This document shows positions 27,509-36,295 of a stretch of DNA of 36,345 bases, piece by piece; the stretch's first letter is position 1; the number at the start of each line of letters is the position of its first letter. The notes under the pieces were generated by a model. It searched no databases and was not told the DNA's origin. It was given only the letters and a program-made list of their open reading frames with translations. Made by a program: the position numbers and the translations under genes. The DNA comes from a virus: the UHGV virus genome UHGV-0073579; one strand, 5' to 3'.

Positions 27509-28159
27509 ATGAAAACTCAATTGATGGGAGAGCGCATTCGCGCTCGGAGAAAAGAACTCAAGATCAGGCAGGCCGCACTTGGAAAGATGGTCGGCGTGTC
27601 TAATGTTGCCATATCTCAGTGGGAACGCTCTGAGACAGAGCCAAATGGAGAGAATCTTCTCGCCCTGGCTAATGCGTTGAAGTGTTCCCCTGACTATCTG
27701 ATGAAAGGAGAGGAAAGTCTTTCAAACATTGCCTATCACAGTAGGCATGATCCAAGAGGGTCATACCCTCTGATTAGCTGGGTGAGCGCAGGATGCTGGA
27801 TGGAAGCTGTAGAACCATATCATAAGCGTGCAATAGATAACTGGTACGATACAACCGTAGACTGTTCAGAAGATTCGTTTTGGTTGGACGTGAAGGGAGA
27901 CTCAATGACGGCTCCGGCCGGTCTCAGTATCCCTGAAGGAATGATAATACTCGTCGATCCTGAAGTAGAGCCGCGTAACGGGAAACTGGTAGTTGCAAAG
28001 CTCGAAGGAGAAAACGAGGCAACTTTCAAGAAGTTAGTTATTGATGCAGGCAGGAAGTTTCTAAAACCACTTAACCCACAATATCCGATGATCGAGATCA
28101 ACGGAAACTGCAAAATCATCGGCGTAGTTGTCGATGCAAAACTAGCAAACCTTCCATAA
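27509..28159 (+). CDS. c2: Prophage repressor, P22 C2-type (HTH plus S24 autoprotease domain)
   Basis: 216 aa; MKTQLMGERIRARRKELKIRQAALGKMVGVSNVAISQWERSETEPNGENLLAL... and C-terminal ...GDSMTAPAGLSIPEGMIILVDPEVEP... essentially P22 C2. Confidence 0.95.
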   Translation: MKTQLMGERIRARRKELKIRQAALGKMVGVSNVAISQWERSETEPNGENLLALANALKCSPDYLMKGEESLSNIAYHSRHDPRGSYPLISWVSAGCWMEAVEPYHKRAIDNWYDTTVDCSEDSFWLDVKGDSMTAPAGLSIPEGMIILVDPEVEPRNGKLVVAKLEGENEATFKKLVIDAGRKFLKPLNPQYPMIEINGNCKIIGVVVDAKLANLP

Positions 28160-28990: not shown

Positions 28991-29614
28991 ATGTCATCAA
29001 TCCGCTTAACTACGAGAATGAAAGAGAAAATCGCTCGTAACGCTTTAATTAAGTCTGGGGTTTTCACTGAACTTGAAGAAGTAACAAAGTTAAAGAACCA
29101 GCTTGCACTTGACGCCAGAGTTATTGCGTTTGGCGGTAAAAAGAAAACTGAGGAAGTGGATCAGTTATCATCCAGGTTAGTAGCTATAAGTGAAGAACTT
29201 GAAAAGATGGGATGTTCATTTTACTCATACGATGTTCGTTCTACTTCAATTTATCTGACTGTATCTGGCAGAAGGGTTGGATGGCATTCATATGGGAAAG
29301 ACGGCAACGGCGAAGATATATTGCTCCCTACTCCAACCAAAGATAAATGCATGTTTGATGCAGAACACGAAATAACAAAAAGGTTTGATGAAATCTGCGC
29401 ATTGCAACAAAAACTTGAAGCCAAGAAAAAGGATATCGAATCAAATGTATGGGCTGCTTTGAACTCAGTCACAACAGTTAAGCGACTTATTGAAGTTTGG
29501 CCTGAAAGCAAAGAATTGCTACCAAAAGAAGCAGACAAAGCAAGTACAGCACTTCCTGCTTTACGGGTAGAAGATTTGAATAAGATGATTGGACTTCCTT
29601 CCGAGTCCGCATAG
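28991..29614 (+). CDS. Hypothetical 207-aa protein, first gene after N
   Basis: ATG at 28991 with GAGAGGAA RBS; no family recognised. Confidence 0.55.
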   Translation: MSSIRLTTRMKEKIARNALIKSGVFTELEEVTKLKNQLALDARVIAFGGKKKTEEVDQLSSRLVAISEELEKMGCSFYSYDVRSTSIYLTVSGRRVGWHSYGKDGNGEDILLPTPTKDKCMFDAEHEITKRFDEICALQQKLEAKKKDIESNVWAALNSVTTVKRLIEVWPESKELLPKEADKASTALPALRVEDLNKMIGLPSESA

Positions 29615-29838: not shown

Positions 29839-29973
29839 ATGATGCACTTTCAGCTCGCGGGTAGCGGCGTCATGTCCGCTTTCTACCCGCACGAATCTGA
29901 ATTATCACGCCGAGTTAAACAATTAATCAGAGCAGCAAAGAAACAACTGGAGGCGTTATGCGCAATGAAATAG
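29839..29973 (+). CDS. cIII: CIII-like protease inhibitor
   Basis: Start at internal MM; MMHFQLAGSGVMSAFYPHESELSRRVKQLIRAAKKQL parallels lambda CIII MQYAIAGWPVAGCPSESLLERITRKLRDGWKRL. Confidence 0.6.
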   Translation: MMHFQLAGSGVMSAFYPHESELSRRVKQLIRAAKKQLEALCAMK

Positions 29974-30110
29974 CCATTAATCACCAGATGCTTCGTGCGG
30001 CACAAAACAAAGCAGTAATAGCCAGATTTATTGGTGATTCAAAAATGTGGCTTGAAGCAAATAAAGCGATGAAATCAGCTATCAACCTTCCGTGGTATCG
30101 CAGGAAATGA
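29958..30110 (+). CDS. kil: Kil-like small protein
   Basis: 50-aa ORF below the track cut-off; GGAGG RBS; ...AVIARFIGDSKMWLEANKAM... resembles lambda Kil ...ATFIGDEKMFREA... Confidence 0.45.
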   Translation: MRNEIAINHQMLRAAQNKAVIARFIGDSKMWLEANKAMKSAINLPWYRRK

Positions 30111-30185
30111 GTTTTACAGATAACTGGTCAGACGAAGAATTCATTCGTCAGATGAAAGATTTAATCGGTAACGAAGGAGATATTC

Positions 30186-30356
30186 ATGTCACTTGCAACC
30201 ACAGTGAAGGAGAGCAAGTTACAGAGACGCATGTACACGCAGAAAGCTCTCTGGTATCGCCATAATGGTGACCGCGAAGGAATGCGGGTATGCCTTAATT
30301 TGTCCAGAGTCGAAGTATTAAACCAGCGTTATTTCCTTGGGCCATGTCCATTCTGA
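30186..30356 (+). CDS. Small ORF (56 aa) immediately upstream of the recombinase
   Basis: ATG with GGAG 8 nt upstream; overlaps another 52-aa ORF (30107-30265) in a different frame; unclear which is expressed. Confidence 0.3.
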   Translation: MSLATTVKESKLQRRMYTQKALWYRHNGDREGMRVCLNLSRVEVLNQRYFLGPCPF

Positions 30357-30364
30357 GGTGAATT

Positions 30365-31072
30365 ATGGATTTGAATAAATTCGATGAGCCATTCAGCCCT
30401 GAAGATATCGAATGGCGAATACAGCAAAGCGGTAAAACACGCGATGGCAAAGTGTGGGCTATGGTGCTGGCTTATGTCACGAACCGGGCAATCATGAAAC
30501 GCCTGGACGATGTTTGCGGCAAAGCAGGATGGCGCAATGAATACCGCGATATTCCCAACAACGGAGGCGTTGAATGCGGCATATCAATCAGGATTGATTC
30601 CGAATGGGTAACCAAATGGGATGCTGCTGAAAACACGCAGGTAGAAGCCGTCAAAGGTGGTCGTTCCGGTGCAATGAAGCGCGCTGCCGTTCAGTGGGGA
30701 ATCGGTCGGTATCTGTATAACCTTGAGGAAGGTTTTGCACAAACATCTCTCGATAAAAAGCAGGGATGGCACAGGGCAAAACTCAAGGATGGAACAGGAT
30801 TTTACTGGCTCCCTCCATCGCTGCCGGGATGGGCAATCCCAGCATCAGATAACAAATCACCACCAGAAAATACCAACCAGAAATCTCCATCGGTTGACTG
30901 CGAACAAATCCTGAAAGACTTCAGCGATTATGCATCGAAAGAAACTGACAAGAAAAAACTCATCGAGCGTTATCAGCGTGACTGGCAATTAATGGCTGGC
31001 AATGAGGATGCGCAGGCTAAATGCGTTCAGGTAATGAACATCAGAGTTAACGAGCTAAAACAGGCGGCATAA
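30365..31072 (+). CDS. ssDNA-annealing recombinase: Rad52/Sak-like N-terminal domain with Erf-like C-terminal tail
   Basis: 235 aa; Rad52-type GIGRYLY motif; C-terminus ...YASKETDKKKLIERYQRDWQLMAGNEDAQAKCVQVMNIRVNELKQAA matches the recalled P22 Erf C-terminus. Confidence 0.75.
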   Translation: MDLNKFDEPFSPEDIEWRIQQSGKTRDGKVWAMVLAYVTNRAIMKRLDDVCGKAGWRNEYRDIPNNGGVECGISIRIDSEWVTKWDAAENTQVEAVKGGRSGAMKRAAVQWGIGRYLYNLEEGFAQTSLDKKQGWHRAKLKDGTGFYWLPPSLPGWAIPASDNKSPPENTNQKSPSVDCEQILKDFSDYASKETDKKKLIERYQRDWQLMAGNEDAQAKCVQVMNIRVNELKQAA

Positions 31073-31588
31073 ATGGCAAGCAGAGGCGTAAATAAGGTGA
31101 TCATTATTGGTCGCCTTGGGCATGATCCAGAAATCAGATATTCACCATCAGGAACGGCATTTGCAAACATTACAGTTGCTACGTCAGAACAATGGCGTGA
31201 TAAGCAAACTGGAGAGCAAAAGGAGCAGACGGAGTGGCACCGTGTGGTAATGAGCGGGAAACTGGCAGAAATTGCCAGCGAATATCTGCGAAAAGGCTCT
31301 GAGGTTTATCTTGAAGGCAAATTGCGGACAAGAAAATGGCAGGATCAAAGCGGACAGGATAGGTTCACTACCGAAGTCATCGTGGGCGTTGGTGGAACCA
31401 TGCAAATGCTTGGTGGAAAGCAAGGAGGCAATGAACAGTCTTCACCTCAGCGAAATAACGGTCAGCAACAAAGACAGCAATCTCAGCAGCAGGGGAATCA
31501 CAGCGAACCACCTATGGATTTTGACGACGATATACCCTTTGCACCAGTAACTCTCCCCTTCCCTCGTCACACTATTCACGCAATTTAA
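31073..31588 (+). CDS. ssb: Single-stranded DNA-binding protein
   Basis: 171 aa; OB-fold N-terminus, Gln/Gly-rich linker, acidic C-terminal tip DFDDDIPF. Confidence 0.9.
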
Positions 31589-31596
31589 GGACTTAC

Positions 31597-32145
31597 ATGA
31601 ATCACTTAATGGTTGACCTTGAAACAATGGGCAACGGACCATACGCGCCAGTTATTTCTATTGGGGCGGTGTTCTTTGACCCGAATACCGGAGAAACAGG
31701 AGAAGAGTTCTCGGTAAATATCTCGCTTGAGTCATCAATGCGATATCGGGCGCGTCCTGACGCTTCAACGATTTTATGGTGGATGGAACAGAGTGAAGAA
31801 GCCAGAAAATCGCTAACCAGCAACACTCAGGAGCTTTCAACGGCTCTTTCATGGTTATCTGAATTCATCATAAAGAACGCTAACCACAAATTCGTTCAGG
31901 TTTGGGGGAATGGAGCATCATTTGACTGCGTTATTCTCCGCAACAGTTATTCGCTGACAGGGCAGCCAGTTCCGTGGCAGTGGTGGAATGACCGCGACGT
32001 AAGAACAATCGTCGAGCTTGGAAAGGTAATAGGATTCGACCCTAAGCGAGATATGCCATTCAAAGGAACTCGCCACAACGCGCTTGATGATGCCATCCAC
32101 CAAGCCAAATACGTTTCAGCAATCTGGAAAAAATTAGCTAAATAA
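31597..32145 (+). CDS. DnaQ-like (DEDDh) 3'-5' exonuclease
   Basis: 182 aa; MVDLETMGN (Exo I), FDCVILRN, HNALDDAIHQA (Exo III) motifs. Confidence 0.75.
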   Translation: MNHLMVDLETMGNGPYAPVISIGAVFFDPNTGETGEEFSVNISLESSMRYRARPDASTILWWMEQSEEARKSLTSNTQELSTALSWLSEFIIKNANHKFVQVWGNGASFDCVILRNSYSLTGQPVPWQWWNDRDVRTIVELGKVIGFDPKRDMPFKGTRHNALDDAIHQAKYVSAIWKKLAK

Positions 32146-32161: not shown

Positions 32162-32455
32162 ATGCCAGCGCCTCTGTATGGTGCAGATGACCCACGCCGC
32201 TGTTCCGGCAATTCCGTATCGGAGGTGCTGGATAAATTCAGAAAAAACTACGATCGGATAATGTCGCTACCGCAGGAAACGAAAAAGGAAAAGGAATTTC
32301 GCCATTGTATATGGCTTGCAGAGAAAGAAGAACGCGAGCGAATTTACCAGACATCAATCCGACCATTCCGCAAAGCCACATATACCCACTTCCCTGAAAT
32401 TGACCCGCGCCTGCGTAATTACCGCTCACGCTATGGCGCTATCAGTAATGACTGA
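32162..32455 (+). CDS. Hypothetical protein
   Basis: 97-aa ORF in the early-left operon. Confidence 0.45.
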
Positions 32456-35028: not shown

Positions 35029-35247
35029 ATGTACTTGACACTTCAGGAGTGGAACGCACGCCAGCGACGCCCAAGAAGCCTTGAAACAGTTCGTCGATGG
35101 GTACGCGAGTGCAGGATATTCCCTCCTCCGGTTAAGGATGGAAGAGAGTATCTGTTCCACGAATCAGCGGTAAAGGTTGACTTAAATCGACCAGTAACAG
35201 GTAGCCTTTTGAAGAGGATCAGAAATGGGAAGAAGGCGAAGTCATGA
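35029..35247 (+). CDS. xis: Excisionase Xis (lambda-type)
   Basis: 72 aa; MYLTLQEWNARQRRPRSLETVRRWVRECRIFPPPVKDGREYLFHESAVKVDL essentially lambda Xis; overlaps int start. Confidence 0.95.
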   Translation: MYLTLQEWNARQRRPRSLETVRRWVRECRIFPPPVKDGREYLFHESAVKVDLNRPVTGSLLKRIRNGKKAKS

Positions 35248-36295
35248 GCGCCGGGATTTACCCCCTAACCTTTATATAAGAAACAATGGATATTACTGCT
35301 ACAGGGACCCAAGGACGGGTAAAGAGTTTGGATTAGGCCGAGACAGGCGAATCGCAATCACTGAAGCTATACAGGCCAACATTGAGTTATTTTCAGGACA
35401 CAAACACAAGCCTCTGACAGCGAGAATCAACAGTGATAATTCCGTTACGTTACATTCATGGCTTGATCGCTACGAAAAAATCCTGGCCAGCAGAGGAATC
35501 AAGCAGAAGACACTCATAAATTACATGAGCAAAATTAAAGCAATAAGGAGGGGTCTGCCTGATGCTCCACTTGAAGACATCACCACAAAAGAAATTGCGG
35601 CAATGCTCAATGGATACATAGACGAGGGCAAGGCGGCATCAGCCAAGTTAATCAGATCAACACTGAGCGATGCATTCCGAGAGGCTATAGCTGAAGGCCA
35701 TATAACAACAAACCCGGTCGCAGCCACTCGCGCTGCAAAATCAGAGGTAAGGAGATCAAGACTTACGGCTGACGAATACCTGAAAATTTATCAAGCAGCA
35801 GAATCATCACCATGTTGGCTTAGACTTGCAATGGAACTGGCTGTTGTTACCGGGCAGCGAGTTGGTGATTTATGCGAAATGAAGTGGTCTGATATCGTAG
35901 ATGGATATCTTTATGTCGAGCAAAGCAAAACAGGCGTAAAAATTGCCATCCCAACAGCATTGCATGTTGATGCTCTCGGAATATCAATGAAGGAAACACT
36001 TGATAAATGCAAAGAGATTCTTGGCGGAGAAACCATAATTGCATCTACTCGTCGCGAACCGCTTTCATCCGGCACAGTATCAAGGTATTTTATGCGCGCA
36101 CGAAAAGCATCAGGTCTTTCCTTCGAAGGGGATCCGCCTACCTTTCACGAGTTGCGCAGTTTGTCTGCAAGACTCTATGAGAAGCAGATAAGCGATAAGT
36201 TTGCTCAACATCTTCTCGGGCATAAGTCGGACACCATGGCATCACAGTATCGTGATGACAGAGGCAGGGAGTGGGACAAAATTGAAATCAAATAA
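35225..36295 (+). CDS. int: Tyrosine integrase Int (lambda-type)
   Basis: 356 aa; MGRRRSHERRDLPPNLYIRNNGYYCYRDPRTGKEFGLGRD... through ...HLLGHKSDTMASQYRDDRGREWDKIEIK essentially lambda Int. Confidence 0.97.
   Translation: MGRRRSHERRDLPPNLYIRNNGYYCYRDPRTGKEFGLGRDRRIAITEAIQANIELFSGHKHKPLTARINSDNSVTLHSWLDRYEKILASRGIKQKTLINYMSKIKAIRRGLPDAPLEDITTKEIAAMLNGYIDEGKAASAKLIRSTLSDAFREAIAEGHITTNPVAATRAAKSEVRRSRLTADEYLKIYQAAESSPCWLRLAMELAVVTGQRVGDLCEMKWSDIVDGYLYVEQSKTGVKIAIPTALHVDALGISMKETLDKCKEILGGETIIASTRREPLSSGTVSRYFMRARKASGLSFEGDPPTFHELRSLSARLYEKQISDKFAQHLLGHKSDTMASQYRDDRGREWDKIEIK

Follow-up and report, generated by a model that had tools for sequence, protein, structure and literature searches.

The gene at positions 30365 to 31072 of the window, as the whole stretch of 36,345 nucleotides analysed here is called, encodes a modular protein of the Sf6 gp28 and epsilon34 gp36 type, in which a Rad52/Sak core is followed by a linker of about 20 residues, predicted to be disordered, and by a 57-residue C-terminal domain (CTD) that is shared with P22 Erf. 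The protein would act in single-strand annealing, and the CTD behaves as an independent evolutionary cassette in phages of Enterobacterales, with subtypes that have been swapped repeatedly between ERF-type and Rad52-type cores. The CTD itself is proposed to be non-annealing and to serve as a peripheral protein-protein adaptor, which would link the annealing ring with whatever machinery generates or coats ssDNA. By analogy with the CTD of Redβ, its most likely target would be the conserved acidic C-terminal tail of SSB from the host, the phage, or both, and a specific phage protein encoded next door would be a less likely target than this tail. We assign a probability of about 80% to this explanation as a whole, that is, a Rad52/Sak core with an exchangeable adaptor CTD that likely targets the SSB tail.

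The gene lies in the early-left operon of a lambdoid phage or prophage of the P22/Sf6 kind, and a kil homologue marks the start of its recombination region. The features, in gene order from the repressor onward, are as follows.

27509-28159, plus strand: repressor, first in the listed gene order
Between the repressor and kil, plus strand: Nmad5-domain gene
29958-30110, plus strand: kil homologue (Pfam Lambda_Kil, E 2e-20)
30092-30356, plus strand: two small overlapping ORFs of 57 and 56 aa, equivalent to Sf6 genes 30 and 29 (phrog_2123, phrog_1723)
30365-31072, plus strand: strand-annealing protein gene, an intact ATG-to-TAA ORF of 235 codons plus stop
30365-30835, plus strand: N-terminal Rad52/Sak-type annealing core, aa 1-157, from Pfam PF04098, the AlphaFold2 (AF2) model and Foldseek
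30836-30898, plus strand: variable low-complexity linker, aa 158-178, holding the mosaic joint, from pLDDT and conservation
30899-31069, plus strand: Erf-type CTD, aa 179-235, predicted three-helix bundle ending in NELKQAA, similar to the 3' end of P22 erf
31073-31588, plus strand: phage SSB gene (Pfam SSB, E 2e-38)
31597-32145, plus strand: DnaQ-like 3'-5' exonuclease of the recombination module, Rv2179c-like (Pfam PF16473, E 3e-73)
32162-32455, plus strand: Abc2 anti-RecBCD protein, 97 aa (Pfam PF11043, E 3e-63)
After abc2 and before the integrase-sized ORF, plus strand: ead/Ea22-like genes
35225-36295, plus strand: integrase-sized ORF, 356 aa, with best phage matches annotated as integrase

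The 57- and 56-aa ORFs lie directly upstream of the annealing gene, in the position occupied by arf in P22, and neither matches Pfam Arf. On the other side, the ATG of the SSB gene abuts the TAA stop codon of the annealing-protein gene, and further downstream the Abc2 protein is 93% identical to that of P22. The annealing-protein gene is 98.6% identical to Sf6 gene 28 at the nucleotide level over its full length of 708 nt, and the whole gene is present at 80% identity or more in 93 phage records, including mEp235, HK75, IME10, ES18, ST64T, and epsilon34. Its orthologues are Sf6 gene 28, ST64T orf-235, ES18 gp49, and epsilon34 gp36.

A preliminary description of this DNA, based on the letters alone, had recognized a Rad52-family signature including GIGRYLY in the N-terminal 120 or so residues and a close match to the C-terminus of P22 Erf in the last 60 or so, and both observations are confirmed by profile searches, alignments, and structure prediction, with its two length estimates not far off. 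The Pfam family Rad52_Rad22 (PF04098) matches aa 4-136 with an E-value of 7e-26 (91.4 bits against a cut-off of 20.3), spanning profile positions 7-153 of 153, and the modelled core extends to about aa 157. The sequence WGIGRYLYNL occupies aa 111-120, with GIGRYLY at aa 112-118. The window protein has no match to Pfam ERF (PF04404) at E ≤ 0.1, and likewise none to phrog_155; P22 Erf scores E 5e-46 on Pfam ERF (aa 5-146) and 4e-53 on phrog_155. The usual label "Erf-like" therefore does not fit the core. The annealing core is identifiable without the tail.

Structure prediction agrees with the profile searches. The full-length AF2 model, built from 110 homologues, has a mean pLDDT of 82.7, and its aa 1-157 form a well-predicted alpha/beta core with values mostly between 80 and 95. 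When this full-length model was used as the Foldseek query, the top 16 PDB matches were all yeast Mgm101 or human RAD52 (E 1e-4 to 5e-3, probability 0.97-1.00), with alignments covering about 125-170 columns; the TM-scores of 0.27-0.46 are modest because the CTD was included in the query. The predicted core fold is Rad52-like, a beta-sheet with a flanking helix, and by family membership the core is expected to form rings, bind ssDNA, and anneal complementary strands. Homologues from other phyla (Lactococcus, Bacillus, Longimicrobium, Gemmatimonadales, and others) share 55-60% identity with the window protein over a match that ends at aa 159-176; homologues from Enterobacterales match aa 1-235.

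The region following the core is of a different kind. Linker residues 162-175 are predicted to be disordered (pLDDT <50 in the full-length model), and the linker contains no conserved column among the 110 homologues. Beyond it, the full-length model places three helices at aa 179-192, 196-209, and 214-234, and a separate model of the CTD only, a 64-aa construct, has a pLDDT of 90.8 with helices at its residues 8-21, 25-38, and 43-63. The CTD is thus predicted to be a separately folding domain on a flexible linker. For Erf itself, a two-domain structure with a separate domain and a flexible, protease-accessible linker was established in 1983 by Poteete, Sauer and Hendrix, and the epsilon34 genome paper, which cites their work, regards the domain swap as consistent with it (PMC2629481).

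Searching the two regions separately, as the preliminary description had suggested, places Rad52_Rad22 on aa 4-136 only and finds no Pfam family on aa 150-235; NCBIfam has no model for the protein, its tail, or P22 Erf. In a pairwise BLASTP comparison with P22 Erf (AF217253 erf), aa 163-235 align to Erf 133-205 with 63% identity over 73 aa (E 2e-30), and the first 160 or so residues of the window protein give no alignment. Identity over the last 60 residues, which include the helical tail at aa 179-234, is 72%, and clear conservation begins at about aa 180. A tblastn search of 50,697 phage records (2.3 Gb) with the last 70 aa recovers P22 erf at E 1e-23, and a chance similarity is therefore excluded by either E-value. 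Conserved CTD columns are L183, F186, A190, L199, Y203, W207, Q217, C220, R227, E230, and L231, which are mostly hydrophobic apart from Q217, R227, and E230. Between the window and P22, the CTD has a pS of 0.70, a pN of 0.13, and a dN/dS of 0.07, indicating strong purifying selection, and the tail is therefore conserved as a protein and not as a DNA site. A conserved DNA regulatory site as the reason for the shared 3' end is ruled out by this ratio together with near-saturated synonymous sites.

The combination of a Rad52-type core with this tail is old and common, being found across prophages of Enterobacterales. The family phrog_1097 matches aa 1-235 against profile positions 2-251 of 251 (E 5e-129). 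A full-length protein search (E ≤ 1e-5) returned 5,591 matches, and of the best 120 almost all span the entire query, with identities as low as 56%, in Cronobacter, Citrobacter, Klebsiella, Pantoea, Erwinia, Yersinia, and others. Judged from these homologues, the fusion is neither fresh nor unusual, and it has been noted before. The genome paper of epsilon34 points out that the gp36 group is called Erf only through its C-terminal 56 residues and that "domain swaps" of this kind were discussed earlier, citing the HK97/HK022, Sf6, and ES18 genome papers on the subject (PMC2629481), and in the Sf6 record gene 28 carries the annotation "similar to phage P22 Erf protein". According to a 2025 survey of lambdoid Rec modules in Genome Research (PMC12315714), annealing proteins are classed by their annealing domain within one Rad52/Beta/Erf/RecT structural family, and its catalogue includes modules of SSB, DnaQ-like nuclease, and Abc2, which is the arrangement seen in the window. 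With the swap published for epsilon34 with reference to Sf6 and ES18, and the module catalogued in 2025, the finding is therefore already known.

Two qualifications to the preliminary description are needed here. It had proposed domain swapping between unrelated families of annealing proteins; the two-module mosaic stands on Pfam, BLASTP, and AF2, but "unrelated" does not, as the literature groups ERF, Redβ/RecT, and Sak/Rad52 together in a single Rad52-like superfamily (Lopes et al., 2010, PMC2896510; PMC12315714). It had also set a chimera against a protein that aligns from end to end with a single family; phrog_1097 does match the full length, yet the breakpoint is real when the protein is compared with P22 Erf and with Sak homologues from outside the enterobacteria.

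Comparison with P22 Erf, with non-Enterobacterales Sak homologues, and with Salmonella phage UPF_BP1 independently places a joint in the linker, at the domain boundary. DNA similarity to P22 erf covers window positions 30902-31072 at 78% identity and ends at the stop codon, beyond which the genes are unrelated (ssb in the window, abc1 in P22), and therefore the tail and the downstream genes were not co-inherited. UPF_BP1 carries the same Rad52-type gene as the window and shares with P22 a block of 94% nucleotide identity that runs from about codon 186 of this gene through abc1 and abc2, whereas upstream of the joint UPF_BP1 and P22 are unrelated. The window and UPF_BP1 share 95.8% nucleotide identity in the core but only 86% in the tail (pS 0.12 versus 0.41), which indicates yet another exchange at the same place. 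The homology of the window to both P22 and UPF_BP1 stops exactly at the stop codon. With joints in the linker and at the stop codon, the tail is therefore a cassette bounded on both sides.

To map its distribution, the 70-aa tail was run in an exhaustive HMMER search (E ≤ 1e-3) against 1.84 billion representative proteins. Only 17 proteins were found, many of them truncated or mis-assembled, and the tail is therefore a narrow family; a word-indexed protein search with the same 70 aa returned only 13 fragments and no architectures. Among the HMMER representatives, the tail is attached to Rad52-type cores in P0015 and P0018, the latter keeping only the end motif GRYLYNLEEGF without a Pfam match, and to ERF cores in P0020 and P0022. 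Diverged tails (38-47% identity) are attached to ERF cores in Klebsiella phage RCIP0034, Erwinia phage vB_EhrS_49, and Morganella phage IME1369_01. The nearest relative of each ERF-attached tail sits on a Rad52-type core (96% identity for P22, 91% for P0020, 86% for P0022, and 80% for the Erwinia phage), while ERF-attached tails are 39-59% identical among themselves, except for the pair of ERF fragments P0020 and P0022 at 88%. Because ERF-attached tails are closer to Rad52-attached ones, exchange between the core types has been repeated and not single. What the present analysis adds to the published swap is that the tail cassette has moved repeatedly between core types and diverges independently of them.

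The genes around the tail bear on what it may bind. The contexts scanned were 23 enterobacterial loci with a Rad52-type core and 4 with an ERF core. An SSB gene lies immediately downstream in 20 of the 23 Rad52-core contexts and in one of the four ERF-core contexts, and is absent in UPF_BP1. The DnaQ-like exonuclease occurs in 6 of the 23 Rad52-core contexts and was not found in the four ERF-core contexts or in UPF_BP1. Abc2 is present with Rad52-type cores in the window, Sf6, UPF_BP1, and one prophage locus (L008), and with an ERF core in P22 only. In P22, RCIP0034, and four Rad52-core prophages the upstream position is taken by an Arf homologue, and elsewhere by an unrelated 56-aa ORF. Across the contexts scanned, none of SSB, the DnaQ exonuclease, Abc1, Abc2, Arf, and the 56-aa upstream ORF accompanies the tail in every case, and a dedicated neighbouring partner is rejected as the main explanation because no companion gene is universal.

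In the preliminary description, the SSB or exonuclease encoded just downstream was proposed as the partner that the tail contacts, and in that form the proposal is not supported. A tail kept for specific docking of these phage proteins, comparable to the CTD of Redβ and λ Exo, would accord with the SSB gene that starts directly after the stop codon and with its frequency among Rad52-core contexts. There are also precedents, as the CTD of Redβ binds its neighbouring exonuclease (PMC6393309) and the cognate SSB from the neighbouring gene stimulates Sak4 (PMC5928155). However, the P22 tail, 96% identical to that of a Rad52-core protein, is followed in both P22 and UPF_BP1 by abc1 and abc2, without a phage SSB or exonuclease, and a dedicated neighbouring partner is therefore unlikely. 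The exonuclease is also missing from most contexts, with an HNH gene in its stead in Sf6, and the end of P22 homology at the stop codon separates the history of the tail from that of its neighbours. Specific docking next door is consequently considered doubtful.

The SSB of the window does not stop at its acidic tip, DDDIPF, but carries a 15-aa extension beyond it. The DNA encoding this extension (31543-31588) shares 98% identity with the final 46 nt of the HNH-type Sf6 gene 26, which in Sf6 and in one prophage locus (L007) separates ssb from the gene that follows and which is absent from the window. The same 15-aa extension is found in the diverged SSBs of two prophages (L010 and L012), whose ssb genes are followed by the DnaQ-like exonuclease. 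The tip of SSB is normally recognized via the carboxylate of its terminal Phe. If so, tip-binding proteins may fail to read the extended phage SSB, and such a masked tip argues further against the phage SSB as the obligate partner of the tail.

A factor common to all these hosts fits these contexts better than a neighbour does, and most plausibly it would be the acidic tip of host and phage SSBs (ending in DFDDDIPF), which is the leading candidate by analogy. The analogy is with the CTD of Redβ, a three-helix bundle that binds λ Exo as well as the last nine residues of E. coli SSB (PMC6393309), and it makes a generic interaction with the acidic tail of host or phage SSB plausible. Redβ (CTD structure PDB 6M9K) and the window protein both combine an annealing core, a low-complexity linker, and a three-helix bundle, but the comparison concerns the manner of working only, as no homology between the CTD of Redβ and the Erf-type CTD was detected (hhalign probability 0.9%). 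Likewise, neither the CTD profile nor the full-length profile gave a meaningful hit when searched against PDB sequences. The structural neighbours of the CTD in BFVD are individually non-significant, although several of the top ones are annealing proteins (SAK3, ERF, and RecT; query TM-scores 0.56-0.80), which suggests that a small helical C-terminal module may be a common accessory of annealing proteins. Several observations run against the SSB tail as the target. The CTD is near neutral (pI 6.4) and not obviously suited to an acidic peptide, the 15 residues beyond the tip of the window SSB would probably interfere with canonical tip recognition, and an SSB gene adjoining the annealing gene in most Rad52-core contexts is also what a specific SSB partnership predicts.

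Alternatively, the CTD may act within its own molecule, for example by controlling ring or filament assembly or by auto-inhibition of DNA binding. The HMMER tail search placed it exclusively at the C-terminal end of annealing proteins, with no convincing free-standing copy, and the oligomeric state of Mgm101 is described as modulated by its C-terminal regions (PMC3655812). Such a role seems improbable, as the same CTD on two cores without detectable sequence similarity is hard to reconcile with a specific internal contact. In the cryo-EM structure of the Erf homologue Gp77, moreover, residues 1-125 make up the ring, and a C-terminal region predicted to have three helices sits flexibly at the periphery, with no resolved contacts (PMC13017515).

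It is decidedly improbable that the CTD couples the protein to Abc2-modified RecBCD and thereby loads it onto ssDNA from the hijacked host nuclease. Abc2 is encoded beside CTD-bearing proteins in the five genomes named above, and it is credited with binding RecC and altering RecBCD (Murphy, 2000, as cited in PMC5928155). However, no Abc2 lies within 4 kb at most of the diverged CTD-bearing prophage loci (L010-L026), HK620, which lacks the CTD, has Abc2 with Sak4, and Abc2 is reported to work with λ Bet (PMC5928155). A single homogeneous family whose likeness to Erf reflects whole-length common descent is barely credible, for although phrog_1097 matches end to end and a distant relationship in fold connects the ERF and Rad52 families (PMC2896510), it is refuted by the sharp breakpoint, at which identity to P22 Erf leaps from undetectable to 72% in the linker, the P22 Erf tail alone matches phrog_1097 only at profile positions 195-251, and the non-enterobacterial Sak homologues (55-60% identity) end at about aa 160.

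The mosaic has practical consequences. RefSeq and PHROGs label the protein "Erf-like", yet its core is of the Rad52/Sak type, and counts of recombinase families based on names would misfile it. The gene also provides a clean textbook example of a lambdoid mosaic joint at a domain linker. If the tail is an element that couples the protein to the host or to SSB, it would be the part to swap when annealing proteins are moved between recombineering hosts. A bolder extension, which we regard as tentative and unlikely in its entirety, is that the tail serves as a portable adaptor cassette that has passed between ERF and Rad52 cores at least three times, diverges independently of them, and sets which host can be used through the SSB tail or another conserved host factor, and that the SSB with the masked tip keeps phage ssDNA free of host SSB partners, the annealing protein meanwhile working with host SSB. 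If this were true, tail grafting could retarget recombineering proteins to Enterobacterales.

In comparison with known systems, the core domain of the window protein is held in common with Sak of Lactococcus phage ul36, other PF04098 relatives, eukaryotic Rad52, and Mgm101. These proteins have other C-terminal regions in place of the Erf-type CTD, and the match to them stops at about aa 160; a Sak-type homologue from a Lactococcus cremoris prophage, for example, aligns over aa 6-159 at 58% identity. P22 Erf, on the other hand, shares the tail of about 57 residues (72% aa identity, E 2e-30) and the general plan of a ring-forming core, a linker, and a small CTD, and its gene has the same place within the early-left operon. 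P22 Erf's core belongs to Pfam ERF (PF04404) and that of the window protein to Rad52_Rad22, with no detectable sequence similarity over the first 160 or so residues, and P22 erf is flanked by arf and abc1 whereas the window gene is flanked by small ORFs and ssb. The window gene is of the same type as those for Sf6 gp28, ST64T Orf-235, ES18 gp49, epsilon34 gp36, and the "Rad52/22 family" proteins of mEp235 and HK75. Sf6 gene 28 shows point differences only and lies in the same place, after kil and two small ORFs and before ssb, but the downstream module differs, consisting of SSB, an HNH gene, and Abc2 in Sf6 and of SSB, a DnaQ-like exonuclease, and Abc2 in the window, as in epsilon34.

The protein encoded at 30365-31072 (+) carries the database name 'Erf-like ssDNA annealing protein' (PHROG phrog_1097 and RefSeq products), despite having a core of the Rad52/Sak type. 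Erf of Salmonella phage P22, itself a member of phrog_155, was examined through its tail alone, and the match to phrog_1097 was confined to profile positions 195-251. The 'Erf-like' name is propagated from this 57-residue tail. The Rad52/Sak core shows unusually high conservation, with 55-60% identity between distant phyla.

Several near-identical enterobacterial phage segments were observed in assemblies titled as unrelated taxa, among the compared loci L007, L010, and L028-L085. L007 (98% identity) is found in an 'Actinomycetes bacterium' MAG and L010 (77% identity) in an assembly titled 'Chryseobacterium sp.', and these labels probably arise from contamination or mis-binning.

The genes of the recombination module following the annealing-protein gene include:

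31073-31588, phage ssb, notably 31528-31588 (acidic tip and C-terminal extension)
31597-32145, DnaQ-like 3'-5' exonuclease (Pfam Rv2179c-like, E 3e-73)

The encoded SSB has a canonical acidic tip followed by 15 further residues. In Shigella phage Sf6 and in L007, an HNH-type gene (Sf6 gene 26) separates ssb from the gene that comes after it, and this HNH-type gene is absent from the window. The last 46 nt of Sf6 gene 26 match 31543-31588 with 98% identity; ssb is therefore fused in frame to the last 15 codons of gene 26. The same extension is carried by the diverged prophage SSBs of L010 and L012. Proteins that bind the SSB tip use its terminal Phe, which the 15-residue extension should mask from them in the window SSB.

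An annealing pathway requires 5'-3' resection, and the 3'-5' polarity of the DnaQ-like exonuclease is therefore odd. The same puzzle was remarked upon in a 2025 survey of lambdoid recombination modules (PMC12315714).

At three of the compared loci, a conserved protein of ~95-110 aa takes the place of SSB downstream of the annealing-protein gene:

L003, 3709-4011
L017, 4716-5000
L021, 2795-3127

This protein, with the motif ...ILRKD.RN.ITAFHR...YY.GWAPALEM..., had no Pfam match in a scan of the L003 copy. It occurs beside both ERF and Rad52 cores and may be another interchangeable member of the module.

Upstream of the recombinase gene are the following:

28991-29614, Nmad5-domain gene (PF18757, 'nucleotide modification associated domain 5', full-length, E 4e-72)
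30092-30265, small ORF of 57 aa, annotated in Sf6 as gene 30 (phrog_2123)
30186-30356, small ORF of 56 aa, annotated in Sf6 as gene 29 (phrog_1723)

The Nmad5-domain gene is located in the early-left operon, flanked by the repressor region and kil. The two small ORFs, just 5' of the recombinase gene, share 80 nt that are read in a different frame in each, and their separate PHROG matches are both labelled 'recombinase'. An Arf homologue replaces the pair in some prophages with a Rad52 core, and in P22 the same position, upstream of erf, is occupied by arf.
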